DNA from: Squalus acanthias | Lineage: Eukaryota | Length of the DNA stretch: 64,000 nt | NCBI GenBank assembly: GCA_030390025.1 | Contig: CM059441.1 | Location: forward strand, 62,310,001-62,374,000 | Reading direction: 5' to 3' | Shown: positions 13,829 to 58,356 of the stretch, piece by piece | Layout of the letters: every line of letters begins with the position of its first letter | Numbering within the stretch: the first letter of the stretch is position 1 | Notes under the pieces: generated by a model | What the model was told of the DNA's origin: nothing | Databases searched by the model: none | The model's input: only the letters and a program-made list of their open reading frames with translations | Translations under genes and position numbers: made by a program

Positions 13829-13868
13829 ATGATCAGGATATCTTACTGCCTCCTGTCACTTTTCCACG
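13829..13868 (+). CDS. Siglec-like gene exon 2 coding part: signal peptide MIRISYCLLSLFH (exon spans 13787-13868)
   Basis: Acceptor ctcctttctgtttcag ends at 13786. ATG in ACAATG context. Donor G|GTAATA, phase 1, joins in frame to the V-set exon (..FH-A-VLSEEW). Confidence 0.8.
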
Positions 13869-17493: not shown

Positions 17494-17859
17494 CTGTATT
17501 GTCAGAAGAGTGGAAAGGCAACACTCCACGAGATGTGAAAGCACAGGAAGGTTTGTGTGCACAGATTCCATGTCATTACAGTTATCCATCGAGTCTGGCA
17601 AACCAAACACGAGTTGGAATCTGGTATAAAAATGAGAGACGGATATTATGGTCTGTAGCCTTTCACTCCAAGTATCACAATCAGTCGCCACAGTTACGAC
17701 ATCGGATCCGGCTGTCTGGAGACCTGAAAGATGGCGACTGTTCACTGATTATAAACAACATCACACAGCAAGATGCAGGTCCTTATTATTTCAGGATAGA
17801 ATTTTCTGATAACAAGGGTAGCTACAGCTACAAACCTGACACACTGCTTCAAGTTTCTG
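17494..17859 (+). CDS. Siglec-like gene exon 3: N-terminal V-set sialic-acid-binding Ig domain
   Basis: 366 nt, phase 1-1, tttttctcctcag / GTAAGT. EEW..AQEGLCAQIPCHYSYP...GDCSLII...DAGPYYFRIE...YSYK shows the Siglec GLC/PC/CSL cysteines and the F-strand Arg (AGG 17793-17795). Confidence 0.93.
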
Positions 17860-22450: not shown

Positions 22451-22744
22451 TTTTCACAGATAAACCCACGATATTCCCTGCTGAAATTATTGAAGGAAAG
22501 CATGTGGACGTAAGCTGCACCTTCAACACCACGTGCAAGGGAACAGCACCTGTCTTAACCTGGGTCAAACCCGCTGACATACCCGGGTCAGTCTCAAACA
22601 GTGTAACTCAGCATGGCATCACTCTGACATATACTGCTGTTCTGACCCTGATCCCATCAGTAAAACACCACGGGAAAACTCTTACCTGCAGAGTCAGATA
22701 TCCATCTGTTTCATCTGAGCGGACCCTAGCACTAACTGTGCAAC
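22451..22744 (+). CDS. Siglec-like gene exon 4: C2-set Ig domain 2
   Basis: 294 nt, phase 1-1, donor C|GTAAGT. FTDKPTIFP..SCTFNTTCKGTAPVLTW...HHGKTLTCRV has the extra Cys that pairs with the V domain in Siglecs. Alternative in-frame start at 22460. Confidence 0.92.
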
Positions 22745-22829: not shown

Positions 22830-25165
22830 ATTTGTTCCTGTGATGTGGGCAACGCTGGCAAGGCCAGCATTTATTGCCCATCTCTAATTACCCTTGAGAA
22901 GGTGATCATGAGCGACCTTCTTGAACCGCTGCAGTCTGTGCGGTGAAGGTACTCGCACAGTGTTCTTAGGGAGGGAGTTCCAGGATTTTGACCCAGCGAT
23001 GATGAAGGAACGGTGATATATTTCCAAGTCAGGATGGTGTGTGACTTGGAGGGGAACTTGGAGGTGGTGGTGTTCCCATAGCCTGCAGCCCTTGTCCTGA
23101 ATGTCGTCCAGGTCTTGCTGCATGTGGGCATGGACTGCTTCATTATCTGAGGAATTGCGAATGGAACTGAACACTGTGCAGTCATCAGTGAACATCCCCA
23201 CTTCTGACCTTATGATGGAGGGAAGGTCATTGATGAAGCAGCTGAAGAATGTTGGGCCTAGGACACTGTCGTGAGGAACTCCTGCAGCAATGTCCTGGGG
23301 CTGAGATGATTGACCTCCAACAATCACAACCATCTTCCTTTGTGCTAGGTATGATTCCAGCCAGTGGAGCGTTTATCCCCTGATTCCCATTGACTTCAAT
23401 TTTACTGGGGCTCCTTGTTGCCACACTTGGCCAAAGGCTGCCTTAATGTCAAGGGCAGTCACTCTCACCTCAGCTCTGGAATTCAGATCTTTTGTCCATG
23501 TTTGTACCAAATCTGTAATGAAGTCTGGAGCTGAGTGGTCCGAGTGGAACGTGAACTGAGCATCTGTAAGCAGGTTATTGGTGAGTGCCGCTTGATAGCA
23601 CTGTCGATGACACCTTCCATCACTTTACTGACGATTGAGAGTAGACTGATGGGGCGGTAATTGGCCGGATTGGATTTGTCCTGCTTTGTGTGGACAGGAC
23701 ATACCTGGGCAGTTTTCCACATTGTCAGGTAGATGCCAGTGTTGTAGCTGTACTGAAACAGCTTGGCTAGAGGCGCGGCTAGTTCTGGAGCACAAGTCTT
23801 CAGCACAACAGCCAGGATGTTTGTGGGCCCATAGACTTTGCTGTATCCAGTGCGCTCAGCCATTTCTTGATGTCATGTGGAGTGAACCGAATTGGCTGAA
23901 GACTGGCTTCTGTGATGGTGGGGACCTCAGGAAGAGGACGAAATGGATCATCCACTCGGCACTTCTGGCTGAAGATGTTTGCAAACGCTTCAGCCTTGTC
24001 TTTTGCACTCGCATGCTGGGCTCAGCCATCTTTGAGGATGGGAATATTCATGGAACCACCTTCTCCCGTTAGTTGTTTAATTGTCCACCGCCATTCACGA
24101 CTGGATGTGGCAGGACTACAGAGCTTTGATCAGATCCATTGGTTGTGGGATCGCTTAGCTCTGTCTATAGCATGTCGTTTCCGTTGTTTAGCATGCATGT
24201 AATCCTGTGTTGCAGCTTCCCCAGGTTGGCACCTCAGTTTTAGGAACGGCTGGTGCTGCTCCTAGCATGCTCTTCTGCACTGCTCATTGAACCAGGGTTG
24301 GTCCCCTGGCTTGATGGTAGTGGTAGAGTGAGGGATATGGTGTGCCATGAGGTTACAGATTGTGGTGGAATACAATTCTGCTGCTGCTGATGGCCCATAA
24401 CCCCTCATGGATGTCCAGTTTTGAGCTGCTAGATCTGTTCCGAATCTATCCCATTTAGCATGATGGTAGTGCCACACAACACAATGGAGGGTGTCCTCAG
24501 TATGAAGACGGGATTTTTTCTACACAAGGACTGTGTGGTGGTCACTCTTACCAATACTGTCATGGAGAGATGCATCTGCGATAGGTGGACTGGTAAGGAC
24601 AAGGTCAATTAGGTTTTTCCCTTATGTTGGTTCACTCACCACCTGCTACAGGCCCAGTCTGGCAGCTATGTCCTTCAGGACTCGACCAGCTCGTTCAGTA
24701 GTGGTGCTTCCGAGTCACTCTTGGTGATGGACATTGAATTCCCCCACCCAGAGTACATTCTGTGCCCTAGTGACCCTCAATTCTTCTTCAAAGTGGTGTT
24801 CAACATGGAGGAGTACTGATTCATCAGCTGAGGGAGGGCGGTGGGTGGTAATCAGCAGGAAGTTTCCTTGCCCATGTTTGACCTGAAGCCATGAGACTTC
24901 ATGAGGTCCGGAGTCAATGTTGAGGACTGCCAGGGACACTCCCTCCCGACTGTATACCACTGTGCCGCCACCTCTGGTGGGTCTGTCCTGTTGCTGGGAT
25001 AGGACATACCCAAGGATGGTGATGGAGGAGTCTGGGACATTGGCTGAAAGATAAGATTCTGTGAGTATGACTATGTCAGCTGTTGCTTGACAAGTCTGTT
25101 GGGCAGGTCTCCCAATTTTGGCACAAGGCCCCAGATCATAGTGAGGAGGACTTTGCAGGGTCCAG
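22830..25165 (-). mobile_element. Degraded LINE (CR1/L2 group, second family), endonuclease plus RT
   Basis: LTESYL, NYRPISLLSI, GVP.DSVLGP and FTDD remnants with frameshifts. Confidence 0.85.
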
Positions 25166-25516
25166 ATCACATGTTTTTATTGATAAATGTTGATCAGGAC
25201 ACTGGGGAGAACACTTCTTTGAATAGTGTCACGGGAACGTTTATGTCCATCTGAGAGCGCAGACGGGGCCTCGGTTTAACATGTTATGCAAAAGACGGAA
25301 CCTCCAAACAGTGCAGCACTCCCCTAGTACTGCCACCCCGACAGTGCAGCACTTCCTCAGTACTGCCCACCGGCAGTGCAGCATTTCCCTGGTACGACCC
25401 CTCCGGCAGGTCAGTGCTCCCTTAGTACTGCAGTAAATTGTCTGCCTGGATTACGTGCTTTGTGACGAAGAAAGTTGCATTGATATAACAGTTAACTGAT
25501 CTTTATTTTTTTTTAG

Positions 25517-25798
25517 ACGCACCACGGAATCTCTCAATTACTTCCCTTGATACGATTAAAGATTCATCGATCAATATAAAAGAAGGGAATTCTGCAGTGA
25601 TACTCTGCTCTGTCACAAGCTTCCCAGCTTCTAACCTGACATGGCGACATCTTGGTCTCACAATGAACAGAACAACATCCAACAATGAGCTGTGGTTGGA
25701 GTTTGCTAATGTTACATCCAGGATCACTGGAGACTATCAGTGTGTGGCTGAGAATGAACATGGAGCAGTGGGGAGGACCATAACCATCACTGTGGAAC
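25517..25798 (+). CDS. Siglec-like gene exon 5a: C2-set Ig domain 3 (copy 1)
   Basis: 282 nt, phase 1-1, poly-T tract then AG / GTGAGT. HAPRNLSI...ILCSVTSFPASNLTW...GDYQCVAENEHG. Confidence 0.9.
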
Positions 25799-25846
25799 GT
25801 GAGTGTACAGATACTTTCACATCTCTCTAAATGCAAAAAAAATAAT

Positions 25847-26593
25847 GGCCCGTAATTTCCGACAGGAGACTTCCTGCGTGCGGATGCCTCCTATCGGAAA
25901 AAATCTACGCTCTTACCTGAGGGCTCCCGAGGTCCAGACACTTCCAATCCTGGGCCTGTCCACAGTCGAAATGTGCAGGGCCCACGTATCCCAGGAGCGC
26001 AGGCGGTTCGCAAGCGTCCCTGGGATCACGTGGGCCAGGCCAGCCAATAGGAGAAGGGAATCTCCCTTCATACTTTTGACAGATAGACCCGTCAAAAGTA
26101 TGAATGGGGATCACTGAAAAAAGACACTGAAACATTAAATAAATTTTAAAAAAACAATCATGTTTTTAAAATGAGTTAAAATTACATTAAATTAAATATT
26201 TTAAAGAAAAATTTCAACTTTTTGAAAAAAAATAATTAACGTTTTTTACGGGGCTAAAAATAAACTTACCTTTTTTTAAAAGTATTTTAAAATTATAAAT
26301 GAGTGAAAAAAACTTTTTTTAAAACCTTTTTTTCAACTCTTATGCTGCTAAAAGCAGGCCTTACGCTTTTTCCAGGCGTAAGATTTCTAAGGGTTTTCTG
26401 CGGGCGGAGGTTCTCCAGAAAGCGGAACTCTCCCCCCACAGAGGACCTTCTCTAGGGCAGGTGTCCGATCTGTCAAGCGCATTCTTGATAGATCGGAAAT
26501 GCCGGTTTTCAGCGCATGCGCTTCACATTTCCGATGTCCCTACGGGTGTGAACACAGTGCGTAAACACCCATAGGAATTGGAAACTATGGGCC
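25847..26593. mobile_element. Harbinger-type MITE (duplicated at ~28839-29593)
   Basis: TIR GGCCCGTAATTTCC / GGAAACTATGGGCC, TSD AAT; same family as 59385-60123. Confidence 0.8.
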
Positions 26594-27009
26594 AATATCT
26601 ATGGGAGACTGTGGAATTTACCAAGCCTATGACACACACTCACACGCACATAAACACACACATACACGCTCTTTCTCTCCTCTCTCTCCTTCTTTAAGAC
26701 GACCTTTGAAACCTACCTCTTTAACCAAGTTTTGGTCACCTGTCTTAATATCTCCTTATGTGGCTCAGTGTCAATTTTTGACTGAGCATCTTAAAGGAGG
26801 AGGGAGAGGCGGAGAGGCTTAGGGAGGGAATTCCAGAGCTTAAGGCCTAGTCGGCTGAAGCCACAGCAATCAATGGTGGAGCGAAGGGAATCGGGGATGC
26901 ACAACAGGCCAGAATTGGAGGAATGCAGAGATCTCAGAAGTTTGTCAGGCCGGAGGAGATTAAAGAGATAGAAAGGGGGTGAGGGCCATGGAGGGAACTG
27001 AACACGAGG

Positions 27010-27737
27010 GACTTTATGTGGGACTTATGTGGGACTTTATCAAAGGCCTTCTGAAAATCCAAATACACCACATCTACTGGTTCTCCCTTATCTATTCTAA
27101 CAGTTACATCCTCAAAAAACTCCAGTAGGTTTGTCAAACACGATTTCCCTTTCATAAATCCATGTTGACTTTGTCTAATCCCGTTGATATTTTCTAAGTG
27201 TCCTGTTATCACATCCTTTATAATAGACTCTAGCATTTTCCCTACTACTGATGTTAGTCTGTAGTTCCTTGTTTTCTCTCTCCCTCCTTTTTAAATAGTG
27301 TGGTTACATTTGCCACCCTCCAATCTGCAGGAACTGTTCCATAATCTATAGAATTTTGGAAGATGACAAACAATGCATCCACTATTTCCATGGCTACCTC
27401 TTTTAGTACTCTGGGATGTGGATTATCCGGCCCTGGGGATTTATCAGCTTGCAGTTTCATTAATTTCTCCAGCACTATTTTTTTACTAATACTAATTTCC
27501 TATAATTCCTCCTTCTCATTAGACCCTTGTTTCCCTAGCATTTCTGGGAAGTTATTTGTGTCCTCTTCCGTGAAGACAGAACCAAAGTATTTGTTTAATT
27601 GCTCCGCCATTTCCTTGTTCCCCATTATAAATTCTCCCACAACTGACTGTAAGGGTCCTACATTTGTCTTCACTAATCTTTTTTTTTTTACATGTAGAAG
27701 CTTTTACATTCCGCTTTTATGTCCCTTGCAACTACCT
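27010..27737 (-). mobile_element. Internal CR1 ORF2 fragment at the duplication junction
   Basis: KSPGPD...QHGF...AFDKVPHK; lacks both the 5' end and the 3' tail. Confidence 0.9.
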
Positions 27738-30009
27738 CACCCAGAGTACATTCTGTGCCCTAGTGACCCTCAATTCTTCTTCAAAGTGGTGTTCAACATG
27801 GAGGAGTACTGATTCATCAGCTGAGGGAGGGCTGTAGGTGGTAATCAGCAGGAAGTTTCCTTGCCCATGTTTGACCTGAAGCCATGAGACTTCATGAGGT
27901 CCGGAGTCAATGTTGAGGACTGCCAGGGACACTCCCTCCCGACTGTATACCACTGTGCCGCCACCTCTGGTGGGTCTGTCCTGTTGCTGGGATAGGACAT
28001 ACCCAAGGATGGTGATGGAGGAGTCTGGGACATTGGCTGAAAGATATGATTCTGTGAGTATGACTATGTCAGCTGTTGCTTGACAAGTCTGTGGGACAGG
28101 TCTCCCAATTTTGGCACAAGGCCCCAGATCTTAGTGAGGAGGACTTTGCAGGGTCCAGATCACATGTTTTTATTGATAAATGTTGATCAGGACACTGGGG
28201 AGAACACTTCTTTGAATAGTGTCACGGGATCGTTTATGTCCATCTGAGAGCGGAGACGGGGCCTCAGTTTAACATGTCATGCGAAAGTTGGCACCTCCAA
28301 ACAGTGCAGCACTCCCTTAGTACTGCCCCCCGACACTGCAGCACTTCCTCAGTACTGCCCCCCGACATTGCAGCATTTCCCCGGTACTACCCCTCCGACA
28401 GGTCAGCGCTCCCTCAGTACTGCAGTAAATTGTCTGCCTGGATTACGTGCTTTGTGATGAAGAAAGTTGCATTGATATAACAGTTAGCTGATCTTTATTT
28501 TTTTTTAGATGCACCACGGAATCTCTCAATTACTTCCCTTGATACGATTAAAGATTCATCGATCAATATAAAAGAAGGGAATTCTGCAGTGATACTCTGC
28601 TCGGTCAGAAGCATCCCAGCTTCGAACCTGACATGGCGACATCTTGGTCTCACAATGAACAGAACAACATCCAACAATGAGCTGTGGTTGGAGTTTGCTA
28701 ATGTTACATCCAGGATCACTGGAGACTATCAGTGTGTGGCTGAGAATGAACATGGAGCAGTGGAGAGGACCATAACCATCACTGTGGAACGTGAGTGTAC
28801 AGATACTTCCACATCTCTCTAAATACAAAAAAAATAATGGCCCGTAATTTCCGACAGGAAGCTTCCTGCGTGCGGATGCCTCCTATCGGAAAAAAATCTA
28901 CGCTCTTACCTGAGGGCTCCCGAAGTCGGGACACTTCCGATCCTGGGCCTGTCCACAGTCGAAATGCGCAGGGCCCACGTATCCCAGGGGCACAGGCGGT
29001 TCGCAAGCGTCCCTGGGATCACGTGGGCCAGGGCAGCCAATAGGAGAAGGGAATCTCCCTTCATACATTTGACAGATAGACCCGTCAAAAGTATGAATGG
29101 AGATCACCCCAAAAGACACTAAAACATTAAATACATTTTTAAAAAACCATCACGTTTTTAAAATGAGTTAAAATTACATTAAATTAAATATTTTAAACAA
29201 AAATTTAATTTTTTGAAAAAAATAATTTAAGTTTTTTACGGGGCTAAAACTAAACTTACCTTTTTTAAAAGTATTTTAAAATTATAAATGAGTGAAAAAA
29301 TTTTTTTTAACTTCTTTTCAACTCTTATGCTGGTAAAAGCAGGCCTTACACTTTTTTCACGCATAAGATTTCTAAGGGTTTTCTGTGGGCGGAGTTTCTG
29401 CAGAAAGCGGAACTCTCCCCCCGCAGAGGCCCTTCTCCAGGGCAGGCGTCCGATCTGTCTAGAGCATTCTTGACAGATCGGAAATGCTGATTTTCAGTGC
29501 ATCCGCTTCGCATGCCTGAAACCGGCATTTCCGATGTCCCTGCGGGTGTGTACACAGCACATACACACCCTTAGGCGACGGAAAATACGGGCCAATATCT
29601 AATGGAGACTGTGCAATTTACCAAGCCTATGACACACACTCACACGCATATAAACACACTCATACACTCTCTGTCTCTCCTCTCTCTCCATCTTTAAGAT
29701 GACCTTTGAAACCTACCTCTTTTACCAAGCTTTCGGTCACCTGTCTGAATATCTCCTTATGTGGCTCGGTGTCAATTTTTGACTGAGCGTCTTAAAGGAG
29801 GAGAGAGAGGCGGAGAGGCTTAGGGAGGGAATTCCAGAGTTAAGGCCTAGACAGCTGAAGGCACAGCCGTCAATGGTGGAGCGAAGGGAATCGGAGATGC
29901 ACAACAGGCCAGAATTGGAGGAATGCAGAGATCTCGGAAGGTTGTCGGACCGGAGGAGATTAAAGAGATAGGAAGGGGGCGAGGGCCATGGAGGGAACTG
30001 AACACGAGG
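27738..30009 (+). repeat. Segmental tandem duplication, copy 2 (contains exon 5b)
   Basis: Starts CACCCAGAGTACATTC and ends AACACGAGG, as does copy 1. Confidence 0.95.
28509..28790 (+). CDS. Siglec-like gene exon 5b: C2-set Ig domain 4 (tandem duplicate of exon 5a)
   Basis: 282 nt, intact splice sites, open frame; 6 nt differences from exon 5a. Confidence 0.85.
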
Positions 30010-30211: not shown

Positions 30212-30487
30212 ATCCACCCAAGGAGACGACAGTGGCCATCAGCGGAGCCACGGGCGGAATAAGAGAGGGAGACAACATCATGTTAACCTGCTCCAGTGAA
30301 AGCGTCCCTCCGGCATCTAGTTACGCCTGGTTCAGGGTCGACGGAAACACGACCACTCAGTTAAACACAAGTGCTCGGTCCATCTACTCCGGTCACCTAA
30401 CACGGGCGAATGATGCCGGTTTCTATTGCACAGCGAGGAACCCATTGGGTAACGGCACGTCCACCATTGTACACCTGAGTGTGGAAT
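30212..30487 (+). CDS. Siglec-like gene exon 6: C2-set Ig domain
   Basis: 276 nt, phase 1-1, ttgttccag / GTAAGT. HPPKETTVAI...MLTCSSESVPPASSYAWF...DAGFYCTARNPLG. Confidence 0.92.
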
Positions 30488-32234: not shown

Positions 32235-32820
32235 ACAGCAACAACTTGCATTTATATAGCGCCTTTAACATACTAAAATGTCCCACGGCACTTCACAGAA
32301 GCGTTATCAGACAAATTTGATAGCAAACCACATAAGGGGATATTAGGGCAGATGACCAAAAGCTTGGTCAAAGAGATAGGTTTTAAGGAGCGTCTAAAGG
32401 AAAGAGAGAAAGACGCAGAGAGGTTTAGGGAGGGAATTCCAGAGCTTAGTGCCTAGGTAGCTGAAGGCACAGCCGCCAATGGTGGAGCGGTTAAAATCGG
32501 GGATGAGCAGAAGGCCAGAATTGGAGGAGCGCAGAGATCTCGGAGAGTTGTAGAACTGGATGATGTTACAGAGATAGGGAGGGGCGAGGCCATGGAGGGA
32601 TTTGAAAACAAGATTGAGAATTTTAATATCGAGGCGGAGGTGGACCGGGAGCCAATGTAGGGCAGCAAGCACAGGGGTGATGGGTGAATGAGACTTGGTG
32701 CGAGTTAGGATACAGGGCAGCAGAATTTTGGATGAGCTCAAGTTTACGGAGGGTGGAAGATATGAGGCCGGCCAGGATTGCATTGGAATAGTCAAGTCTA
32801 GAGGTAAGAAGAGGGTTTCA
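32235..32820 (-). mobile_element. L2-clade LINE 3' fragment
   Basis: ITPVLAALHWLPV...SLHGLAPPYL...LWNSLP; tail ending tatataaatgcaagttgttg. Confidence 0.85.
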
Positions 32821-32890
32821 GTGTTAGGATTCTATCTTACGGTCTAACAGTGCTACGACATTGCCTAATTTGTTGTTCTTACTCCCTCAG

Positions 32891-33184
32891 ATAAGCCAGA
32901 GATTTCCCGGGAGTCGGAATGCACACGGACGGCCAAGGGTGTCACCTGCCTCTGCGTGGCCAGATCCAACCCGCCCGGAGACCTCACCTGGCACCTTCCC
33001 CTCGCTAACGTCAGCGCCAAGCAAACAAGCGGCCATTTCGTGACGTGGCGGGTCAGCGACGGGCAGCTGGTGAATGGCTCCCTGACCTTGACGGGTCGCG
33101 AGGGTGAGGAGGAAGCGACGGTCTTCTGCTCAGTTAGAAACCAGCATGGAGAAGCCATGTTCAAGGTGTACCTGTGGGCCAAAG
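32891..33184 (+). CDS. Siglec-like gene exon 7: membrane-proximal Ig domain (MAG Ig5/CD33-related type, CxC motif)
   Basis: 294 nt, phase 1-1, actccctcag / GTGAGA. YKPEISRESECTRTAKGVTCLCVARSNPPGDLTW...FCSVRNQHG. Confidence 0.92.
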
Positions 33185-33349
33185 GTGAGAGCAGTTTTCA
33201 CGATCGCTCTCAATTCAGGTGCCTAGATCCTTAAGTTCTGGAATTCCCTCCCTCAACCTCTCCGCCTCTCTCTCTCCACTTCCTTTAAGACGCTCCTTTA
33301 AAGCTATCTCTTTGACCAAGGTTTTGGTCATCTGTCCTAATGTGATATG

Positions 33350-35300
33350 TGATAAGGGCATCTTCATAAAGGTTGACAGGGTAGATAGAGAGAAACCATT
33401 TACCCTGTTGGGGGGAGTCCAGAACTAGGGGGCATAACCTTAAAATTAGAGCTAGGCCGTTCATGGGTGATGTCAGAAGCACTTCTTCACACAAAGGTTA
33501 GTGGAAATCTGGAACGCTCTCCCCCAAAGAGATATTGATCTCGGGGGTCAATTGAAAATGAAAATAGGCTGCACAAACTCGGGTTATATTGAAGTACTGT
33601 GTTCAGTTCTGAGCACCACAATTTAGGAAGGATATATTGGCCTTGGAGGGATTGCAGTGTAGATTTACCAGAATGAAACCTGGAATCAAAGGGTTATCTT
33701 ACGAGGATAGGTTACACAAACTAGGGTTGTATTCCCTGGAATTTAGATGGTTAGGGGTAATTTGATTGAAGTTTTCAAGATATTCTGTGGAACAGACAGG
33801 GTAGATAGAGAGAAACTATTTCCGCTGGTTGGGGAGTCCAGGACTAGAGGACATAGCCTAAAAATTAGAGCCAGGCCTTCAAGGAGTGAAGTTAGGAAAC
33901 ACTTTAACACACACAAAGGGTGGTCGAAGTTTGGAACTCTCTTCTGCAAATGGTCAATTGTTATTTTTAAATCTGAGATTGATAGAATTTTGTTAACCCA
34001 AGGTATTAAAGATATAGGGCAAGGCAGGTATATGGAGGTAGGGCACAGATCAGCCATGATCTCGTTGAATGGCAAAAAAAGCTCAAGGGGATGAATGACC
34101 TGCTCCTGTTCCTATGTTCCTTCCTATGGTCCTATGTGGCTCGGTGTCAAATTTTGTCTGATTTATGCTCCTGTGAAGCACCTTGGGAAGTTTTACTATG
34201 TTAAAGGTGCTATATAAATGCAAGTTGTTGTTGTCTGATACAAATCAGCTGATTGTTGCATCACTTAGAGCAGAATTGTCCCAGGGATGAGGGATTTCAG
34301 TTACAGGGAGAGACTGGAGAAGATGGGGTTGTTCTCTTTAGAGCAGAGAAGATTAGGGGAGATTTAATAGAGGTGTTCAAAATCATGAAGGGTTTTGATA
34401 GAGTAGATAGGGAGAAACTGGAGGCTGACTAATATTACATCTTTAGATATTACATATATAGTTATTACATAAATTGATTTTATACATAAATGTTTCACAG
34501 TAAAGGAAGACTTACATTTATATAATGCTTATATAGTCCCAAAACACTTTACAGCCAATGAAGTACTTTTGAAGTATAGTCACTGTTGTAGTGTAGGAAA
34601 CATGATCGCAAATTTGCGCACAGCAAGATCCCACAAACAGCAACGTGATAATCACCAAATAATCTGTTATTTTAGTAATGTTATATATATAAACATATAT
34701 AGATATTACATATATAAAATGGTTCACTAATATTTCTTTAGAGAATGTACCTTGCTGTCATTACCCCGTCTGGGCCTATATGTGACTCCAGTCCCACACC
34801 AACGTGGTTGACGCTTAACTACCCTCTGAAGTGGCCACTCAGTTTGTATCAAACCAACTACCAGCACCTCATGGAATCATAGAATCATAGAATCGTTACA
34901 GCACAGTAAGAGGTCATTCGGCCCATCGAGCCAGTGTCTGCTCTCTGCAAGAGCACTTCAGCTAGTCCCCATCCTCCGTCCTCTCCCGTAGCTCTGCAAA
35001 TTTTTTTCATTCATTTACTTACCTAATTCCCTTTTGAAAACCATGATTGAATTTGCTTCCACCACCCTTTCAGGCAGTGCATTCCAGATCATAACCACTC
35101 ACTGCGTAAAAAAGTTTTTTCTCATGTCGCCTTTGGATCTTCTGCCAATCGCCTTAAATCTATGTCCTCTGGTTCTCGACCCTTCTGCCAATGGGAACAG
35201 TTTCTGTCTATCTACTCTGTCCCACCCCCTCATGATTTTGAACACCTCTATCAAACTCCTCTCAACCTTCTCTGCTCTAAGGAGAGCAACCCCAGCTTCA
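33350..35300. mobile_element. Cluster of CR1, L2 and SINE fragments in both orientations
   Basis: Repeated RGDLIEVFKIM.G.DRVDREKLFPL remnants at 33747, 34340 and 35099. Confidence 0.75.
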
Positions 35301-35484
35301 AGAAGATGTCCCACCACCACCTTCTCAAGGGACAGCTAGGGTAGGGCAATAAATGTCGGCCTTGCCAGCGGTGACCACATCCCGAGAATGAATTGCCAAA
35401 AATTGAGCGAGTGCTTCACTTCTCGAGGTACATCGGAGCATTGTTCTAAAACTGTACTGCAGTAATTAATGGCTGTTTTTACAG

Positions 35485-35581
35485 GTAGAGACTCCAATAA
35501 ATGGCAAGTAGGATTGCTTGTAGCTGGGATCATGTTGAGTGTTGAACTGGCTGGATTCTTAACCTTCAAGTGCATGAGAAA
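35485..35581 (+). CDS. Siglec-like gene exon 8: transmembrane segment GRDSNKWQVGLLVAGIMLSVELAGFLTFKCMRK
   Basis: 97 nt, phase 1-2, gtttttacag / GTAAGT. Hydrophobic stretch followed by basic stop-transfer residues. Too short for the ORF track; translated by hand. Confidence 0.85.
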
Positions 35582-35949
35582 GTAAGTGCGAAGGTTTAAC
35601 TTTTTTTTTTATCAAAGTCTTTACTTCAATCTTCCCTCCTTAAGTCAGTGATTGGTTAAGCACCAGACGCCACTCCCATAAGTGATCCCTGTGTCCCCTA
35701 CAATCTGGAGTGTGTCTTTCACGGCCCAGTATCCAGGTGAACGCTAACGAGACCCAGAGATCCCTCACTATGCACGCTGGCTGCTGGATTGTATCAGGTC
35801 ATCTTGTGATTCGACAACACCACAGGGACCACATTTCGATAAACAATTGATTGTCTGTGGAGCACTGTGGGATGTCCTGAGGATGTGAATAAATTCCTGC
35901 ACATTCGTATGTTCTATTTCTCTCTGATTTAGATTCACAAGTATGATAC

Positions 35950-36750
35950 CAGTACTGAGAGGTTATAACGATCAGGAAAGACTGAACAGGCTGGGGCACT
36001 TTTCTTTAAAAAAGAGAAGACTGAGGGGCGACCTGATCGAGGTCTTTATGATTATGAAGGGGTTTGATAGGGTAGATGTAGAGAAGATGTTTCCACTTGT
36101 GGGGTAGACTAAAACTAGGGGTCATCAATAGTCGCTAATAAATCCAATCGGGAATTCAGGAGAAACTCTTTACCTAGAGAGTGGTGAGAATGTGGAACAC
36201 ATGGAGTGGTTGAGGCTAATAGCGTAGATGCATTTAAGGGGAAGCTAGATAAGTACATGAGGGAAACATGAATAGAAGGATATGTTGATAGGGTTAAATG
36301 AAGAGGGATGGGAGGAGGCTCTTGTGGAGGATAAATCCGGCATGGACCAGTTGAGCCAGTTAAGGGGAGATTCAACAGAGGCGTTCAAAATCATGAGGGG
36401 TTTTGATAGAGTAAATAAGGAGAAACTGTTTCCACTGGCAGGAGGGTCGGTAACCAGAGGACACAGATTTACCGTCACTGGCAAAAAAGCCAGAGAGGTA
36501 GATGAGGAAAAATATTTTTACACAGCGAGTTGTTCTGATCGGGAATGCACTGCCTGAAAGGGCGGTGGACGCAGATTCAATAGCAACTTTCAAAAAGGGA
36601 TTTGGATAAATACTTGAAAAGGAAACATTTTCTGGGCTATGGGGAAAGAGCAGGGGGCAGTGGGATTAATTGGAGAGCTCCTTCAAAGACCCAGCACAGG
36701 CACGATGGGCCGAATGGCCTCTTTCTGTGCTGTGTGATTCTATGATTCAA
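35950..36750 (+). mobile_element. Two tandem CR1 3' fragments
   Basis: ORF2 C-terminal remnants; tail gattctatgatt at ~36740. Confidence 0.8.
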
Positions 36751-36878
36751 TGTATGTGGACAGAAGCGATTTAAAGAAACAGCCCAGTAGTTGCTGTAAT
36801 GTTACAGTGGGGTCTGGGTCTGTCCTGCACTGACACGCTGATATATGATAACCACAGTGCGATATTCTGCTATTTCAG

Positions 36879-36957
36879 GAGAAAGGCAGCGACTGAGAGA
36901 GATTCACAGACCAGTGACATTGCAATGACCGACTGTCCACTCTCCGCACAGCACCAG
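36879..36957 (+). CDS. Siglec-like gene exon 9: juxtamembrane cytoplasmic exon (RKAATERDSQTSDIAMTDCPLSAQHQ)
   Basis: 79 nt, phase 2-0, tatttcag / CAG|GTACAG; phase bridges the TM exon and the last exon exactly. Confidence 0.8.
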
Positions 36958-37140
36958 GTACAGGAATTGTTTCCGTTTAGACCGAAGCCTCAATCTCAGC
37001 GTGTAGACAACACGTGTCGGAGATTCCCAGTTGGGTTGTCCATTAATTTCTGCCTATGGTGTCAGCCGTGGCTCAGTGGGTTTAGCACTCTCTCTCTCGC
37101 CTCTGAGTCAGAAGGTCGTGGGTTCGAAGTCCCACTCATT

Positions 37141-39409: not shown

Positions 39410-39456
39410 CATTCCAAAGACTTGAGCCCCATAAGCCAGGCCGACACTCTCAGTGC

Positions 39457-40642
39457 CAGTACTGAGGGAGTGCTGCCCTGTCGTAGGGGCTGTACTGAGG
39501 GAGCGCTGCCCTGTCGTAGGGGCTGTACTGAGGGAGCGCTGCCCTGTCGTAGGGGCTGTACTGAGGGACTGCTGTCCTGTCATAGGAGCTGTACTGAGGG
39601 AGTGCTGTCCTGTCGTAGGAGCTGTACTGAGGGAGTGCTGCCCTGTCGTAGGAGCTGTACTGAGGGAGTGCTGTCCTGTCGTAGGGGCTGTACTGAGGGA
39701 GTGCTGCACTGTCGGAGGGGCAGTACTGAGGGAGTGCTGCACTGTCGGAGGGGCAGTACTGAGGGAGTGCTGTACTGTCGGAGGGGCAGTACTGAGGGAG
39801 CGCCGCACTATTGGAGGGGCAGTACTGAGGGAGTGCTGCTCTGTCGGAGGGGCAGTACTGAGGGAGTGCTGCACTGTCGGAGGGGCAGTACTGAGGGAGT
39901 GCTGCACTGTCGGAGGGGCAGTACTGAGGGAGCGCCGCACTGTCGGAGGGGCAGTACTGAGGGAGCGCTGCACTGTCGGAGGGGCAGTACTGAGGGAGCG
40001 CCGCACTGTCGGAGGGGCAGTACTGAGGGAGTGCTGCACTGTCGGAGGGGCAGTACTGAGGGAGTGCTGCACTGTCGGAGGGGCAGTACTGAGGGAGTGC
40101 TGCACTGTCGGAGGGGCAGTACTGAGGGAGTGCTGCACTGTCGGAGGGGCAATACTGAGGGAGTGCTGCGCTGTTGGAGGGGCAGTAATGAGTGAACGCT
40201 GCAGTGTTTTAGGGGCAGTACTGGGGGACCACTGCACGGTTGGAGGGGCAGTACTGAGTGCGCGCTGCAGTGTTAGCGAGGCTGTATTAAGGGAGTGCTG
40301 CACTGTCGGAGGGGCAATACTGAGGGAGTGCTGCGCTGTTGGAGGGGCAGTACTGAGGGAATGCTGCACTGTCAGAGGGGCAATACTGAGGGAGTGCTTC
40401 GCTGTTGGAGGGGCAGTAATGAGTGAACGCTGCAGTGTTTTAGGGGCAGAACTGGGGGAGCACTGCAGTTTTGTAGGGGCAGTACTGGGGGAGCACTGCA
40501 CAGTTGGAGGGGCAGTACTGGGGGACCACTGCACGGTTGGAGGGGCAGTACTGAGTGAGCGCTGCAGTGTTGGCGAGGCTGTATTAAGGGAGTGCTGCAC
40601 TGTTGGAGGGGCTGTAGTAAGGGAGTGCTGCACTGTCAGAGG
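39457..40642 (+). repeat. 33-bp SINE-derived minisatellite (~36 units) within a Deu-SINE (39410-40925)
   Basis: Same unit as 12328-13312, with locally clustered variants. Confidence 0.95.
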
Positions 40643-40968
40643 TGCCTTGTTCACATGAGACGTTAAACCGAGGGCTTCATCTGCCCTATCAGATGGATGC
40701 AAAAGGTGCCACGGCCACTATTTCAAAGAAGAGCAGGGGAGTTCTCCCCGATGTCCTATGGCAAATATTTTTCCCTGAAACAAGATCAGTTAAAAAAAAA
40801 CAAATGATCTGGTCATCATCACATTGCTGTTTTTGAGAACTTGCTGTGCGCAAATTTTCTGCCATGTTTCCTCAATTACAACAGTGACTACACTTCAAAA
40901 GTGCTTTGGTACGTCTTGAGGGTGTGAATTATGGGTCTCAAGTCTCTGGAGTTGGACTCGAATCCATC

Positions 40969-42355: not shown

Positions 42356-42598
42356 GGTACGCAGAGCGCTGTGGTTGTTGACCCCTGGAATACAACCAGT
42401 GACGCAACTAGCGAGGCGAAGAAACCAGCTCCCCAAGATTTCTCTGAAGGTCCGGCGGGAAAAGATGCTGGACATGGACAACCAGATAAGCACGAGGACC
42501 TTCTGTATGCCAACATCAACTTCTTGAAGCTGCCCAGTGGTGACGGGACAGTCCACCGGGGCGAAGTCACGGAATACGCACGGATCAGATTCCAGTGA
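42356..42598 (+). CDS. Siglec-like gene exon 10: cytoplasmic tail with ITIM (LLYANI) and ITSM-like motif (TEYARI), stop TGA
   Basis: Acceptor ttttctttgtag ends at 42355, phase 0. EDLLYANINF and TEYARIRFQ* match the two-tyrosine tail of CD33-related Siglecs. Confidence 0.9.
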   Translation, partial: GTQSAVVVDPWNTTSDATSEAKKPAPQDFSEGPAGKDAGHGQPDKHEDLLYANINFLKLPSGDGTVHRGEVTEYARIRFQ

Positions 42599-42613: not shown

Positions 42614-42702
42614 GGGGTGAGGGGTGAGGGGTGAGGGGTGAGGGGTGAGGGGTGAGGGGGGAGGGGTGAGGGGTGAGGGGTGAGACGTGAGGGTTAGGGT
42701 TC
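42614..42702 (+). repeat. (GGGGTGA)n heptamer repeat, ~10 copies, immediately 3' of the Siglec stop
   Basis: Read directly; ends in GGGTTAGGGTT. Confidence 0.92.
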
Positions 42703-42835
42703 GTAGAGTTTGATATTCCTGGTAACACCAGACAACCTGCTGGGGGAGATATTGGGCACGGGGAAGTGTCAACCGTGGCTCAGTTGGTAGCACTCTCGCT
42801 TCTGAGTCAGGAGGTTGTGGGTTCATATTCCAACA

Positions 42836-45800
42836 ATGTTGTAATCTCTGGTTTGTTGCCGGTGCCACGTGCTAGCGAGTTGAGGAACAGGGAGAGAGTG
42901 CAGATAAACACGTGGCTGCAGGGATGGTGTAGGGGGGAGGGTTTCAGTTATGTGGATAATTGGAGCACATTCTGGGGAAGGTGGGACCTGTACAAACAGG
43001 ACGGTTTGCACCTGAACCAGAGGGGCACCAATATCCTGGGAGGGAAATTTGCTACGGCTCTTCGGGGGGGTTTAAACTAATTTGTCAGGGGGATGGGAAA
43101 AAGGGCTGTAGTCCAGGAGCCAGTGGTGAGTGTAGGGAGGTACTGAAGAGGGTATCAAGGTCGCAGGAATGTACCGGCAGACAGGAAGATGGCTTGAAGT
43201 GTGTCTACTTCAATGCAAGGAGCATCCGGAATAAGGTAGGAGAACTTGGAGCGTGGATTGGTACTTGGGACTACGATGTGGTGGCCATTACGGAGACATG
43301 GTTAGAACAGGGACATGAATGGTTGTTGGAAGTTCCGGGGTATAGATGTTTCAGTAAGAGTAGGGAAGGTGGTAAGAAAGGTGGAGGAGTAGCATTGTTA
43401 ATCAAGGATAGTTTAACAGCGGCAGAAAGGCAGTTCGAGGGGGATCTGCCGTCTGAGGTAATATGGGCTGAAGTTAGAAATAGGAAAGGAGCGGTCACGT
43501 TGTTAGGAGTTTTCTACAGGCCCCCAAAAAGTAATAGAGATGTGGAGGAAGAAATTGCAAAGCAGATTATGAATAGGTGTGGAGGTCACAGAGTAGTTGT
43601 CATGGATGACTTCAACTTTCCAAATATTGATTGGAACCTTTATAGGTCAAACAGTTCGGATGGGATAGTTTTTACACAGTGTGTGCAGGAGGGTTTCCTG
43701 ACACAATATGTGGATAGGCCGACAAGAGGTAGGGCCACGTTGGATTTGGTACTGGGTAATGAACCGGGCCAAGTGTTTGATTTGCATGTGGGAGAGCACT
43801 TTGGAGATAGCGACCACAATTCGGTGACTTTCACTATTGCAATGGAGAGGGATAGGGCCATACGGCAGGGCAGGGTTTATAATTGGGGGAGGGGTAATTA
43901 TGATGTGATTAGGCAAGAATTAGGGAGCATAAGATGGGAACAGAAACTATCAGGGAAAGGCACAAACGAAAAGTGGAGCTTTTTCATGGAGCAATTACTG
44001 CGTGTCCTTGATAGGTATGTCCCTGTCAGGCAGGGAGGAAATGGCCGAGGGAGAGAACCATGGTTCACAAAAGAGGTTGAATGTCTAGTCAAGAGGAAAA
44101 AGGAAGCGTATGTAAGGATGAGAAAACAAGGTTCAGTTGGGTCGATTGAGGGGTACAAGGTAGCAAGGAATGAGCTAAAAACAGAGCTTAGGAGAGCTAG
44201 GAGGGGGCATGAGAAGTCCTTGGCGGGTCGGATCAAGGAAAACCCCAAGGCTTTTTACTCTCATGTGAGAAATAAAAGAATGACCAGGGTGAGGGTTGGG
44301 CCGGTCAAGGACAGTAGTGGGAACTTGTGCATGGAGTCAGAAGAGATAGGAGAGGTGATGAATGAATACTTTTCGTCAGTGTTCACCGAGGAGAGGGGCC
44401 ATGTTTTTGAGGATGAGAGTGTGATAAAGGTGGATAGGCTGGAGGAGGTAGATGTTCTGAGGGAAGATGTTTTAGCAATTTTGAAGAACCTGAGGGTCGA
44501 TAAGTCCCCTGGGCCAGATGGGATATATCCTAGGATTCTTTGGGAGGCAAGGGAGGAGATTGCAGAGCCTTTGGCTTTGATCTTTGGGTCCTCACTGTCC
44601 ACGGGGATGGTGCCAGAGGACTGGAGAGTGGCGAATGTTGTTCCTCTCTTCAAGAAAGGAAATAGGAATGACCCTGGTAATTATAGGCCGGTTAGTCTTA
44701 CTTCGGTGGTTGGTAAGATAATGGAAAAGGTCCTGAGGGATAGGATTTATGACCATTTGGAAAGAGGCAACTTAATCAGGGATAGTCAACACGGATTCGT
44801 GAAGGGTAAGTCTTGCCTAACAAATTTGATTGAATTCTTTGAGGAGGTAACTAAGTGTGTAGATGAAGGTAGAGCAGTTGATGTCGTATACATGGATTTT
44901 AGTAAGGTGTTTGATAAGGTTCCCCATGGTCGGCTCATGAAGAAAGTAAGGAGTTGTGGGATAGAGGAAAATTTGGCCGATTGGATAAGTAACTGGCTAT
45001 CTCATAGAAGGCAGAGGGTGGTGGTGGATGGAAAATTTTCGGACTGGAGACCAGTTACCAGCGGTGTGCCACAGGGGTAGGTGCTGGGTCCTCTGCTGTT
45101 TGTGATTTTTATCAATGACTTGGAGGAGGGGACTGAAGGGTGGATCAGTAAATTTGCTGATGACACCAAGATTGGTGGAGTAGTGGATGAGGTGGAGGGC
45201 TGTTGTAGGCTGCAAAGAGACATTGATAGGATGCAGAGCTGGGCCGAAAAATGGCAGATGGAATTTAACCCTGATAAGTGCGAGGTGATTCATTTTGGTA
45301 GGGCAAATTTGAATAAGGATTACAGGGTCAACGGCAGGGTTCTGAGGAACGTGGAGGAGCAGAGGGATCTGGGGGTTCATATCCACAGATCTCTGAAGGT
45401 TGCCACTCAAGTGGATAGAGCAGTAAAGAAGGCCTATGGTGTGTTGGCGTTTATTAACAGGGGGTTTGAGTTTAAGAACCGTGAGGTTATGCTGCAACTG
45501 TACAGGACCTTGGTGAGACCACATTTGGAATATTGTGTGCAGTTCTGGTCACCTCACTATAGGAAGGACGTGGAAGCATTGGAAAGAGTGCAAAGGAGAT
45601 TTACCAGGATGCTGCCTGGTTTGCGGGGGAGGTCTGATGAGGAAAGATTGAGGGAGTTAGGGCTTTTCTCTTTAGAGCGGAGGAGGATGAGAGGCGACTT
45701 AATAGAGGTTTATAAGATGATGAGGGGGATAGATAGAGTGGATGTTCAGAGACTATTTCCTCGGGTGGAGGTAGCTGTTACAAGGGGGCATAACTATAAG

Positions 45801-46046
45801 GTGCATGGGGGGAGATATAGAAGGGATGTCCGAGGTAGATTCTTTACTCAGAGAGTGGTTGGGGTGTGGAATGGACTGCCTGCTGTGATAGTGGAGTCGG
45901 ACACTTTAGGAACTTTCAAGCGGTTATTGGATAAGCACATGGAGCACACCAGAATGATAGGGAGTGGGATAGCTTGATCTTGGTTTCGGACAATGCTCGG
46001 CACAACATCGAGGGCCGAAGGGCCTGTACTATGCTGTACTGTTCTA
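42836..46046 (+). mobile_element. Young 5'-truncated CR1 (ORF1 C-terminus plus ORF2 with one nonsense codon), inserted in a Deu-SINE (head 42773-42826, body 46056-46430)
   Basis: ORF2 open to 45977 except TAG at 45078-45080 (GVPQG*VLGP); tail ctatgctgtactgttcta followed by an A run. Confidence 0.94.
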
Positions 46047-54491: not shown

Positions 54492-55109
54492 ATAAATCTA
54501 GGGAATATAGACCTAGTCTACTCAATCTCTCCCCATAGGGCAATCCCCTCATCCCAAGAACCAGTCCAGTGAACCTTCCTTGCACTCCCTTTAAGGCAAG
54601 TATGTCTTTCCTTCGGTAAGGAGACCAGAACTGTACTGAGTACTCCAGGTGTGGCCTCACCATTGTCCTGTATAATTGTAGTAAGACTTCTTGGGGGGAA
54701 AATTCTGTTGGTTTGCGCCTCCTGTTAGCGCCCTAAGTAATGGGGCGCAAAGCAACTAGCGCCCGGGCGCGGCAATGTTTGTGCCGCTCCCGAAATTGAC
54801 TAGATTTTGCGGCAGCGCAAAAGTTTACCGCCCCGATCTCCTGCGCCCGCAGATCGTGAAGTCAGTCAAGCGTGCAACGCCCTGGTGGCGCCCCGGACTG
54901 GATATTGAGTGGCGCCCCCCTCCTTTCCGCCTGGTGCAAGCAACGACAGGGAGACTGGAACGTTTCCCAGTCGGTGAGGGGCTGGGGGGACACTATTTAA
55001 AGGCACCCTCTTCCTGGCTTTTTCTGTGGTAGACATTTTTGCACCTCTCATTCTGACAGAGAGAGAGATTCTGAGAGAGAGAGAGAGAGAGAGACTTCTG
55101 CATAGAGGC

Positions 55110-56343
55110 AATACTGTCTGAAGTAGTTTTGGCTACTGAGCATCACTTTGCAGGTACTTTTGGATTTGACCTTCATTACTTCGATTGCCAAGAGACTTTG
55201 GGGGCTGCACTGATTCGGGGCATCGTCCTGCACCTGCAGAATCGGAGGCAACAGAGACTCAGAGAGAGAGTGGCAATCATGGCCAGACAGAGGAGGGCCA
55301 ACAGGCCTCTGTACAGGAGACCTTACCCTCCCAGGGTATTCCGGGAACAATTCTCCAACATTAATTTGTCTGCGGAGCAGTGTTTGCTCAGGCTGCACTT
55401 CAGCAAGGAGGTGGCCACTGAGCTCTGTCACCTGCTGCAGCCAGATCTGCAGCCTCTACTGAGGAGCAGGACGTCTCTGTCGGTGGCAGTGAAGGTCACA
55501 GTGGCTCTGAATTTTTAAGCCACTGGCTCCTTTCAAGCAGCTACTTGGGACATCGCCAATATCTCCCAGTTCGCGGTCCATTGCTGCATCCGTCAGGTCA
55601 CAAATGCCCTCTATAAAAGGAGACGCCAGTACATCTCTTTCCTGATGACCCGGGCCAAACAGCATGAACGCGCATTGGGCTTTGCGAGGATAGCGGGCTT
55701 CTCCATGGTGCAGAGCGCCATTGACTGCACGCATGTGGCATTGCGGGCACCGCATGAGAATGCAGAGGTTTTCTGAAACCACAAGGGGTTCCACTCCTTA
55801 AACGTCCAGTTAGTCTGTGACCACAGACAGCTGATACTCGCTGTCAATGCCTGCTATCCTGGCAGCAGCCACGATGCTTTCATCCTGTGCTAGACTGGTG
55901 TGCCAGAACTTTTCCAGGCACCGCATCAGCCAAGTGGTTGGCTCCTCGGGGACAAGGGTTATCCATTCTGCACCTGGCTGATGTCACCGCTCCGTAACCC
56001 CAACACCCCTGCTGAGCTGCGGTACAATGAGAGCCATCTTGCCACCAGGAACATTATTGAGCAGATGATCGACGTGCTCAAGCAACGGTTCCGCTGTCTG
56101 GACCACTCAGGAGGAGCCCTGCAGTACTCGCCTGAGCGAGTCTCCCTCTTCATAGTTGTGTGCTGCATTCTTCATAACCTGGCAATCCTCAGGACCCAGC
56201 CAATGCCACCAGGCCTTGGAGCACCACTGGAGGAGGAGGAAGAGGAGGAGGATGATCAGCAGCAGCACCAAGGTGGGAGGGAGGCCCACAATGTTGAAAC
56301 TGGAAGGGCTGTCCGTCAACGTCTGATAGCAAGCTGCTTCTAG
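55110..56343 (+). pseudogene. Harbinger DDE transposase (HARBI1-like) with in-frame stops
   Basis: [59 protein letters not shown]; stops at 55516, 55774 and 55890. Confidence 0.92.
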
Positions 56344-56652
56344 GCCCCTACTGAGGAAATGGCTTCTGGCATGGAGAACAACATGAATGAAAGCAACCCG
56401 CAACCCCAAAGCCAGCCAAGACAGCAATGATTCCAAAGGCCAAACCTGTACATTTTGAATACAAAAACTTTTTTATTTTACAAACTCTGTGTGTCATTTC
56501 TTCATGACAAACTAATAGAAACAAACACAAAAAATCATTAATTAACATAACTGGTTCTCACAACCTGGAGATAATGTCCAAAACACTAAACAAAAGTTTG
56601 AACACGAACCTCGGCCTTTAATAAAAAAATTCCCAACATTTCATCACACCTC

Positions 56653-58356
56653 CTACTTTTTGCCCTTCGAGGGTGATCTCCATCTCTTGCCCACTTGCCC
56701 CTTTTCCACCCTACTGCTCCTCCGTAATGGGGCCCCGGTGGCTGCAGCAAGGCTGGTAGAAGGCTGCTGATTGTCAGAACCTGAGACTGCAGATGCCCTT
56801 GAAGGACGGCCTCGACCAGCTCTGGGCCTGGAAGGCCCGGCTGCAGACTGCACCAACTCTGCATGGGCGGCAGCAGTCTGGGCCACAGGTGGTGGCAAGT
56901 GCAATGGGGAAGTGACATTGGTGGCAGCAGGAATGCTGTCATCTTGAGAGAGGACAGCAACTCCCTGCTCGACCGACACACTGGCATTCCCACGAGGCAG
57001 CACCTCAGCATCCAGAGCAATCTGCTGGAGCACAGATTGCTGTCCAATAGAGCGACAATGGCAGCAGTCAGTGCTTGCGTGGCCTCAATCTGAGTCTGCA
57101 TGAGACCAGTCTGAGATTGGATCACGGCAGCCAGTAACTGAATTGCAGCACTAAGTATTTGCGTGGCATCCGCCTGTGCTACAGCGTAGTGCTCCACACT
57201 CCTTGCCAGTGCATCAATGCATTCGGGCACCCTTCCGACTGCACCCATGAGCTGAGTGTTCATTTCAGCGATGAGCCGCTCCTCCTCTGCATCCAGTGCA
57301 GCAGGACTTGCTGGCATACTCTCCCTCCGGGGAGAAGGCCCCCGAGCTTCCCTAGCCACATCGCGTTGCTGCAGCCCGCTGGGTCCCGGAGCTTCACCCT
57401 CATCAGACCCTTCCCCCCTGCTCCCCTCCAGGGAAGGCGTGTTCCCAGTGTGGGCATGGGCTTCCTCGGGAGAGGGTGGCGCTGATGCTCCGGCTTCCTC
57501 TTCCTCCTCGCCTGCGGCTTCGCTCCCACTGGCAGCTTGAGGGCCCGTCTCCTCAGCTGGTGAATCACCATCTGAAAGCAGGGAGGTACAAGAGTGGCTT
57601 TAGCATCAGGACAGGGGGGCAGTAAGGGAGGAATGAGTGCAGCGATTTAGTAAGTTGGATTGAAAGTGTCAAAGGCTGGTGTTGTGAGGGACAAGTGGAA
57701 TGAGAGAGAGAAAGCTGATGACCTTACCATTGCTGTCCCGAACGGGGTCGACCTCTCCAGGGGCGACGGGACCGATCACCTGGCTTGCCACAATCCTGTG
57801 GACACGCGCCTCAAGATCGCTGAGGTGTTGCAGCTGAGTCCGACCTCCACCCGTCCGTTGCTGCTGTCTCCTGTTATGAGATAGCTTGGCCTGCAAGAAA
57901 AAGGATGGTGTCTGAGTAAATATACAGCCATGGTCTTGCCTGATGTGCCTCCCATAGTTGAATAGCCCTTACTGTATGCAAAGTGTGGAATGTGTGTGTG
58001 TCTTTCATGAGAGGGCCAAAGGTGTTGGATGAGTGTTGGGCATTGGGGTTTTATGACCCTCTGGCCATAGAGTGAGGTTGAAATGGAGGGTTGGAGAGGT
58101 ATTGAAAAAAAGCCACTCACCCTGACGACCCGAGTGAGGTCGTTGAACTTTTTGCGACATTAAGTAGGGTCCTGGGCACCATGCTCCTGGAGGAGACGTG
58201 CTGAGCCACCTCCCTCCACATTCTTCTGTACGCACGTGGCAAAGGCCTCCTGCCACTCTCAGGGTAGAGTATAGATCTTCTGCGCTCCACCACGCCAACC
58301 AAAGCCTACAAGGCCCGCTCGCTGAAGCGCTGAGCTCGTTCTCTCACCCTCTCCAT
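56653..58356 (-). pseudogene. Harbinger Myb/SANT (trihelix, NAIF1/MSANTD-like) gene, 3 exons: 58356-58121, 57890-57728, 57571-~56653
   Basis: RAQRFSE.AL*ALV..VERRRSILY...WREVA...CRKKFNDL (frameshifted) and RTGGG motif; GT-AG introns (GTGAGT, GTAAGG). Confidence 0.8.

Follow-up and report, generated by a model that had tools for sequence, protein, structure and literature searches.

Does a glutamate lying inside the membrane helix of an inhibitory Siglec-type receptor mark a site of assembly with other receptors, or is it an optional residue of an otherwise ordinary protein? In single-pass immune receptors, an acidic residue buried in the membrane usually marks an assembly site, and for Siglecs only neutral or basic transmembrane (TM) segments are described in excerpts of two reviews (PMC13358205, PMC7226832). 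The question is raised by a stretch of 64,000 nucleotides of the Squalus acanthias genome (C17, 62310001-62374000), hereafter the window, in which a first, sequence-only reading had recognised an ITIM-bearing Siglec with such a residue. It had proposed that this receptor could pair in the membrane with a Lys/Arg-bearing activating receptor, acting as an inhibitory or decoy adaptor, or could have a dual function.

A Siglec-type receptor gene with an ITIM-bearing tail

The ten + strand exons of Table 1 make up one intact gene in the window sequence, with AG/GT ends and matching phases throughout. Splicing all of them in frame gave 733 residues beyond the signal exon without a single stop codon, the precursor being 747 residues long.

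Table 1. Positions, in the window, of the exons and motifs of the receptor gene.
Feature	Position	Strand	Remarks
Likely signal-peptide exon	13829..13868	+	MIRISYCLLSLFH; phase-1 donor, in-frame junction to V exon; relatives start with MIKKSYLLLSLLQAV
V-set Ig exon, Siglec type	17494..17859	+	Pfam V-set and Ig_CD22 above cut-off; best PDB matches Siglec-5, -7, -10, sialoadhesin, MAG
Arg codon in YYFRIE motif	17793..17795	+	aligns with YFFR Arg of Siglec-5 and -7
C2-set exon 1	22460..22744	+	carries extra Cys as in MAG
Ig exon 2a	25517..25798	+	Pfam/exon structure
Ig exon 2b	28509..28790	+	recent tandem copy of 2a, 93.5% over 2.3 kb including introns
Ig exon 3	30212..30487	+	exon structure
Ig exon 4, membrane-proximal	32891..33184	+	contig of run X1 sits exactly on exon
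Transmembrane exon	35485..35581	+	AG/GT ends, phases 1/2; translation reads ...WQVGLLVAGIMLSVELAGFLTFKCMRK
Buried Glu codon GAA	35544..35546	+	residue 629 of 747-residue precursor; 8 residues ahead of first cytoplasmic Lys
First cytoplasmic exon	36879..36957	+	exon structure
Last exon including stop codon	42356..42598	+	exon structure
ITIM-type motif LLYANI	42500..42517	+	shared by most shark relatives
ITSM-like distal motif TEYARI (TxYxxI)	42569..42586	+	ITSM consensus from an excerpt of PMC13358205

The V domain scored 47-51 bits against Siglec-5, -7, -10, sialoadhesin and MAG alike (PDB matches), and the best matches of domain 2 were MAG and CD33. The protein has the Siglec layout of an N-terminal V-set followed by C2-set domains in a type I single-pass chain. 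The essential F-strand arginine is present, YYFRIE being aligned to YFFRVE and YFFRME of Siglec-5 and -7, and we take it to be the sialic-acid-binding residue. It was retained in 29 of the 30 V exons fetched (27 identified with a search pattern and 2 by inspection). The Siglec cysteine pattern, with two B-strand and one E-strand Cys in the V domain and the extra Cys in domain 2, was also evident when the protein was aligned with Siglec-5, -7 and MAG. The tail, of about 110 residues, retains both tyrosine motifs, as the sequence-only reading had stated: a proximal ITIM (LLYANI) and a distal ITIM-like motif (TEYARI), the arrangement of inhibitory Siglecs. Both have Ile at +3, versus Leu or Val in the strict consensus given in part of PMC7226832. 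Judged by its sequence, the gene encodes a Siglec-type ITIM receptor, and the first assignment of the locus stands.

Several other features of the locus were recorded. One Ig exon and its introns have recently been duplicated in tandem (24742-27009 and 27735-30009, 93.5% identical over 2.3 kb), which makes the ectodomain one domain longer; a similar duplication is seen in the Pristiophorus protein P0009. Retention of the intron that follows the TM exon (35580-35585) would lead to an immediate Lys-stop, and to a tail-less, Glu-bearing form resembling CD300c; the same holds for most paralogues. A contig of sequencing run X1, which can only be guessed to be RNA, coincides with the proximal Ig exon (32891-33182); it has 9 differences there, and its sequence no longer matches on either flank. 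It resembles a spliced transcript of a close relative, and gives a weak hint of expression for the gene lineage, not for the window gene.

The surroundings include apparent mobile elements and repeats. Reading frames at 55048-57599 resemble a Harbinger-type DNA transposon, with putative pieces of a DDE transposase and a Myb/SANT-like partner. Long reading frames (endonuclease and reverse transcriptase), which we take to belong to LINEs of the CR1/L2 type, occupy 1298-5252 and 42691-45977, the second beginning some 100 bases past the stop codon of the gene. Long tandem repeats with 33-base and ~43-base units are found at 12300-13370, 39450-40660 and 61770-64000, one of them inside the last intron of the gene.

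The glutamate lies within the only hydrophobic segment

The GAA codon falls in the gene's only hydrophobic stretch, with 14 residues from the Trp up to the Glu and 7 between the Glu and the first Lys. Since 14 residues precede it and 7 follow, no full-length helix avoids the Glu; a helix ending ahead of it, which would have just 14 residues, was rejected. The best 19-residue Kyte-Doolittle window (mean 2.01) includes it as well, which bears out the placement of this acid inside the helix. A sequencing error or a private variant was also rejected, given that GAA is present in 20 of the 30 exons of this type in the same genome and that proteins of Pristiophorus, Mustelus and Rhinoraja have Glu at this column too. 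When four sequencing runs were compared with 32700-37100, a region swamped by intron repeats, the TM exon was covered in all four (one entry falls at 35563), and among the 40 entries listed, beside 1184 more, none was at 35544-35546, so that this comparison has no bearing on the codon.

In human single-pass proteins the count is 0.042 Glu per membrane helix (excerpt of PMC5525207), and a Glu within such a helix is rarer than average. The face of the helix shared with the Glu is made of A(-7), L(-3), G(+3), F(+4) and F(+7), and L(-3), G(+3) and F(+4) are identical in all nine Glu-bearing database rows. The local context reads LxxE(L/M/V)xGF; the acid belongs to the lower half of the helix and, in 8 of these 9 rows, is 8 residues away from the basic residue on the cytoplasmic side. 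Mean hydrophobicity was 2.13 for Glu-bearing helices, compared to 2.07 for Gly-bearing and 1.98 for Thr-bearing ones.

Copies of the transmembrane exon in the Squalus genome

Thirty matches to the TM exon were found in the genome, 20 with GAA, 9 with GCA and one with GGA at the codon of interest. Several of these exons have near-identical pairs on contig C3426, which is probably a second haplotype or a recent duplicate. At least 8 of the 30 lie in genes that are visibly broken, by a frameshift (L087, L090), by upstream stops (L040, L047) or by a defective Ig exon ahead of the TM exon (L041, L043, L044, L045). Close to seven Glu exons (L031-L035, L037 and L038), the proximal Ig exon is intact and the two tail exons are present. 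The same two tail exons, hence the ITIM tail, are kept next to the Ala exons L081, L083 and L085. A second type of tail, ending in YxNC...VYxNV, is found on the same TM exon, with Glu in L036, L039 and L047, and with Ala in L086. Tails of this second type, whose two YxN motifs lie at a distance of ten residues (for example DIYENC...VYGNV), occur across sharks (L104:2488-2598, L106:3663-3776, L107:3519-3629, L112:5933-6043); we presume that they could provide a Grb2-binding or ITAM-like output.

The TM exon of L040 is 92% identical to that of the window, compared to only 23% and 57% for its flanks, which points to gene conversion. Glu is common among the copies of this genome because the TM exon has been duplicated and exchanged between them. 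The helices of L041-L044, mostly within broken genes, combine the Glu with an Arg at their outer end.

Glutamate at the same position in other elasmobranchs

We examined 130 database proteins, of which 87 have a helix of this type (69 distinct segments); the Rhinoraja proteins stand outside these 87. The composition of the Glu column in the 87 segments was F29 L25 G15 E6 T4 A3 V3 C2, and it is the most variable of the 22 helix columns (2.52 bits over the 69 distinct segments). The six database Glu come from 5 of 8 Pristiophorus (sawshark) segments and from one of Mustelus (smooth-hound). In the skate Rhinoraja, all three TM-bearing members of the cluster read ELAGF(L/I)IYK, and the two that were checked have tails with tyrosine motifs. 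No Glu stood at this column in the segments sampled from Heptranchias, Heterodontus, Scyliorhinus, Carcharodon, Cetorhinus, Stegostoma, Hemiscyllium, Chiloscyllium, Pristis, Hypanus, Hemitrygon and Mobula. A profile search over 1.84 billion representatives returned 14 matches: 13 shark proteins, all without Glu, and one unrelated repeat protein. Conservation of the residue is partial: it recurs in three other genera, but is missing from many sister genes and from the other elasmobranchs sampled.

A tree built from the proximal Ig exon contains two groups that unite Glu genes of Squalus with those of Pristiophorus (supports 92/77 and 98/91). Its alignment has only 97 columns, 26 of its 53 inner branches are open and its outgroup is not monophyletic, so that one and several origins of Glu fit this tree alike. 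As Glu genes of the two species group together, the Glu is older than their split. Its codon is one base away from Gly, Ala and Val codons.

Two further observations concern the same helices. Stray Asp or Glu residues were noted at other Ala/Gly positions in P0011-P0013, P0034 and P0089 (catshark, white shark and basking shark). Columns 15 and 19 also vary together, Phe at the Glu column tending to pair with Ile four residues on, and Glu, Gly, Ala or Leu with Phe there; this could reflect either compensation in packing or simply common descent.

Constraint on the site

On a tree of the 30 own-genome exons built without the codon in question, the Glu codon underwent 4 changes, more than 14 of the 18 other core codons, a count that takes in broken copies and relies on a tree assumption violated by gene conversion, so that the freedom of the site may be overstated. 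The neutral expectation, from 90 intron columns, was 2.4-3.1 changes, and the observed number is not below it. Around the Glu, the residues G, I, L, G, F and F showed zero changes in the same genome, and L(-3), G(+3), F(+4) and F(+7), on its own face of the helix, are among the unchanged positions. No strong purifying selection on the Glu was seen among these 30 exons, a result which does not by itself prove neutrality. Of the nine acids found in the helix cores of the 69 distinct segments, six are in the Glu column; this concentration, together with the constant depth, counts against neutrality. The Glu is an optional site, at which Ala, Gly and hydrophobic replacements have occurred repeatedly.

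Candidate partners in the genome

TM exons of CD3-zeta (L101) and FcR-gamma (L102) were both found, with their Asp and the YxxxT motif, the Asp being placed 16 residues from the cytoplasmic edge. A Pfam search of the genome for DAP10 gave nothing over the cut-off, and 1 weak match. Ten short-tailed TM exons of the same subfamily (L119-L128), located at C17 54.1-54.4 Mb, on C26 and on C3542, have an Arg in the outer part of the helix (LGIRAAIF), and likely belong to activating genes coupled to FcR-gamma. There are Arg-bearing sister genes whose ectodomains are near-identical. Six of these ten exons are on C3542 among Ala-type genes, and none is within the C17 62-64 Mb cluster; the set as a whole lies mostly beside inhibitory genes of the Ala type, not of the Glu type. 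A large second cluster of related Ig genes is present at G000:C30 6.0-8.0 Mb (L094-L099), where one TM codon is either Gly, with Tyr-motif tails, or Arg, with no such tail within 10 kb; four of the six exons sampled in this family were Arg-bearing.

The Arg of L119-L128 is 20-21 residues from the cytoplasmic edge, and that of the C30 family 17-23. A salt bridge between the Glu and the Arg of these sister activating genes was rejected as out of register, the Arg being 9-15 residues further out. With a depth of 17-23, the Arg is in keeping with the FcR-gamma and zeta Asp (16) and not with the Glu (8), so that the two residues of the proposed pair are too far apart.

The signatures of known assemblies are also missing. 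Lys-type assembly requires a Ser or Thr one turn below the acid, and CD16-type assembly requires FxxDT (sections 9 and 12 of PMC13107469, respectively). Neither DxxxT nor FxxDT/FxxNT was present in the window gene or in the 9 database rows, all of which have Gly at +3 and Phe at +4. A conserved Cys outside the helix, as for a covalent dimer, was likewise absent.

Comparison with known receptors

The shark receptor shares with CD33-related Siglecs (Siglec-5, -7, -10) and with the ITIM-bearing MAG of fish the FR motif and Cys pattern of the V-set domain, the stack of C2-set domains, a single TM segment, and a proximal ITIM followed by a distal TxYxxI motif (described in portions of PMC13358205 and PMC7226832). 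Activating sister genes within the family are another point in common. The differences are the buried Glu of the shark helix and a separate, elasmobranch expansion of the genes. In CD300c, an Ig-family immune receptor which also has a Glu within its helix, this residue lies near the outer end. The sequence-only reading had cited CD300c as a case of TM Glu. The residue in question is E191, and the tail of CD300c is short and motif-free (excerpt of PMC12447643), whereas the shark protein combines six Ig domains with an ITIM tail. FCRL1 combines a TM Glu with a tyrosine-motif tail, and its partner is given as unknown in the portion of PMC12250417 consulted; its motifs are ITAM-like, unlike those of the shark, and its ectodomain is unrelated.

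CD16A, CD64 and Fc-epsilon-RI alpha (FxxDT/FxxNT) likewise place an acid or a polar residue in the lower half of their helices, whereas the shark protein has no Phe at -3, no Thr at +1, and a signalling tail of its own. An acidic TM residue is also found in the adaptors DAP12, CD3 and FcR-gamma, from which the shark receptor differs by its large ectodomain (six Ig exons) and by having no ITAM, no DxxxT and no conserved outer Cys. The depth of its acid is 8 residues from the edge, versus 16 in FcR-gamma and zeta. The attributes of an acidic adaptor (D/E-xxx-T/S, short ectodomain, disulfide dimer and ITAM) are therefore not found; the short, ITIM-free tail of the CD300c type is not found either, and of the CD16A type the lower-half acid is present without the motif.

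What the glutamate may do

The reading that we favour, and to which we give about an even chance, is that this is an ordinary inhibitory receptor in which an old, optional Glu promotes clustering with itself or with siblings, rather than coupling to adaptors. By analogy with known Siglecs, the receptor would bind sialylated glycans, and phosphorylation of its ITIMs followed by recruitment of SHP phosphatases would likely dampen immune cells, as inhibitory Siglecs do (part of PMC13358205). The buried carboxyl is probably protonated and screened by another helix; a hydrogen bond to the helix of a second copy or of a sibling is likely, and would lead to clusters. N, D, Q and E drive the oligomerisation of helices in model peptides, most strongly at mid-helix (PMC9523718, section 36, first part). 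Clustering suits an optional residue, because no matching partner motif is needed. Against it, the presence of Glu in a skate, a sawshark and the shark of the window may mean a specific partner instead, and the apparent freedom of the site may be inflated by broken copies and conversion.

It is rather unlikely that the Glu is a pure passenger without effect, arisen at a weakly constrained codon and spread by duplication and conversion. The variability of its column, the coexistence of GAA, GCA and GGA in one genome, the stray acids that other sharks have in three more columns of small residues, and the number of exons in broken genes all speak for such a drift; yet the rarity of Glu in single-pass helices, the gathering of most core acids in one column, and its occurrence in every TM-bearing member of the skate cluster do not fit it well. 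A control of dosage is the least probable of the readings considered: quality control in the endoplasmic reticulum (ER) would read the unshielded Glu, less receptor would reach the surface unless paired, and Glu and Ala copies would differ in this respect. For subunits of TCR/CD3 it is established that single helices containing a buried charge are retained in the ER, and the window helix is only moderately hydrophobic; Glu helices, however, are on average no less hydrophobic than their Gly and Thr counterparts.

Two further readings, akin to the proposals made from the sequence alone, involve a partner. In one, the Glu would couple to FcR-gamma or CD3-zeta dimers, as in CD16A and CD300c, and add an ITAM output to the ITIM tail. 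LMIR3 is said to be an ITIM receptor that associates with FcR-gamma, and exons for both adaptors exist in the genome; CD300c signals via FcR-gamma through its Glu (excerpt of PMC12447643). We nevertheless consider such a dual function unlikely, as the motif is LxxE(L/M/V) and not FxxDT/FxxNT in all nine database rows, and dedicated activating sister genes of the Arg type are already there. In the other, a pair of Glu from two copies would capture the Lys or Arg of an activating receptor, wiring it to ITIMs and not to ITAMs. Acid pairs do bind basic residues in TCR, FcR and DAP12 complexes (part of PMC13107469), and the near-identical ectodomains of the Arg genes and the constant depth of the Glu would suit this arrangement. 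It is made very unlikely, though, by the depth of the Arg in the 14 partner exons examined, by G(+3) and F(+4) in place of a Ser or Thr one turn below the acid, by the lack of a conserved outer Cys, and by the location of the Arg exons, none of the ten being in the C17 62-64 Mb cluster. What remains of the proposed pairing is the presence of the Arg sister genes, FcR-gamma and CD3-zeta; the register and the signatures disagree with it, and copies with an ITIM tail and Ala exist. A broader version, an elasmobranch ITIM-bearing mirror image of DAP12, in which an acid pair buried since before the skate-shark split captures activating receptors with a basic residue or joins FcR-gamma, so as to flip or mix the signal, Glu and Ala copies being its coupled and uncoupled forms, is decidedly unlikely as well. 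A modest tuning of an ordinary inhibitory receptor is more likely than coupling to activating receptors.

Significance

No report of elasmobranch Siglec clusters or of an acidic Siglec helix was found in the literature searched, mostly non-subscription papers, and the portions of PMC1193534, PMC3022915 and PMC3031540 that we consulted have nothing on acidic TM segments of receptors. Receptors with a TM Glu are already known, and FCRL1 combines one with a tyrosine tail; the association of a Siglec ectodomain, ITIMs and a TM Glu was not found in print in the sources consulted. If the shark receptors were coupled to activating ones, they would represent an inhibitory adaptor design, not described in the portions of the literature examined. 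Whichever role applies, a family in which one helix naturally carries Glu, Ala, Gly or Phe ahead of a common ITIM tail makes up a ready set for analysing the effects of a lone TM Glu on clustering, trafficking and adaptor choice.
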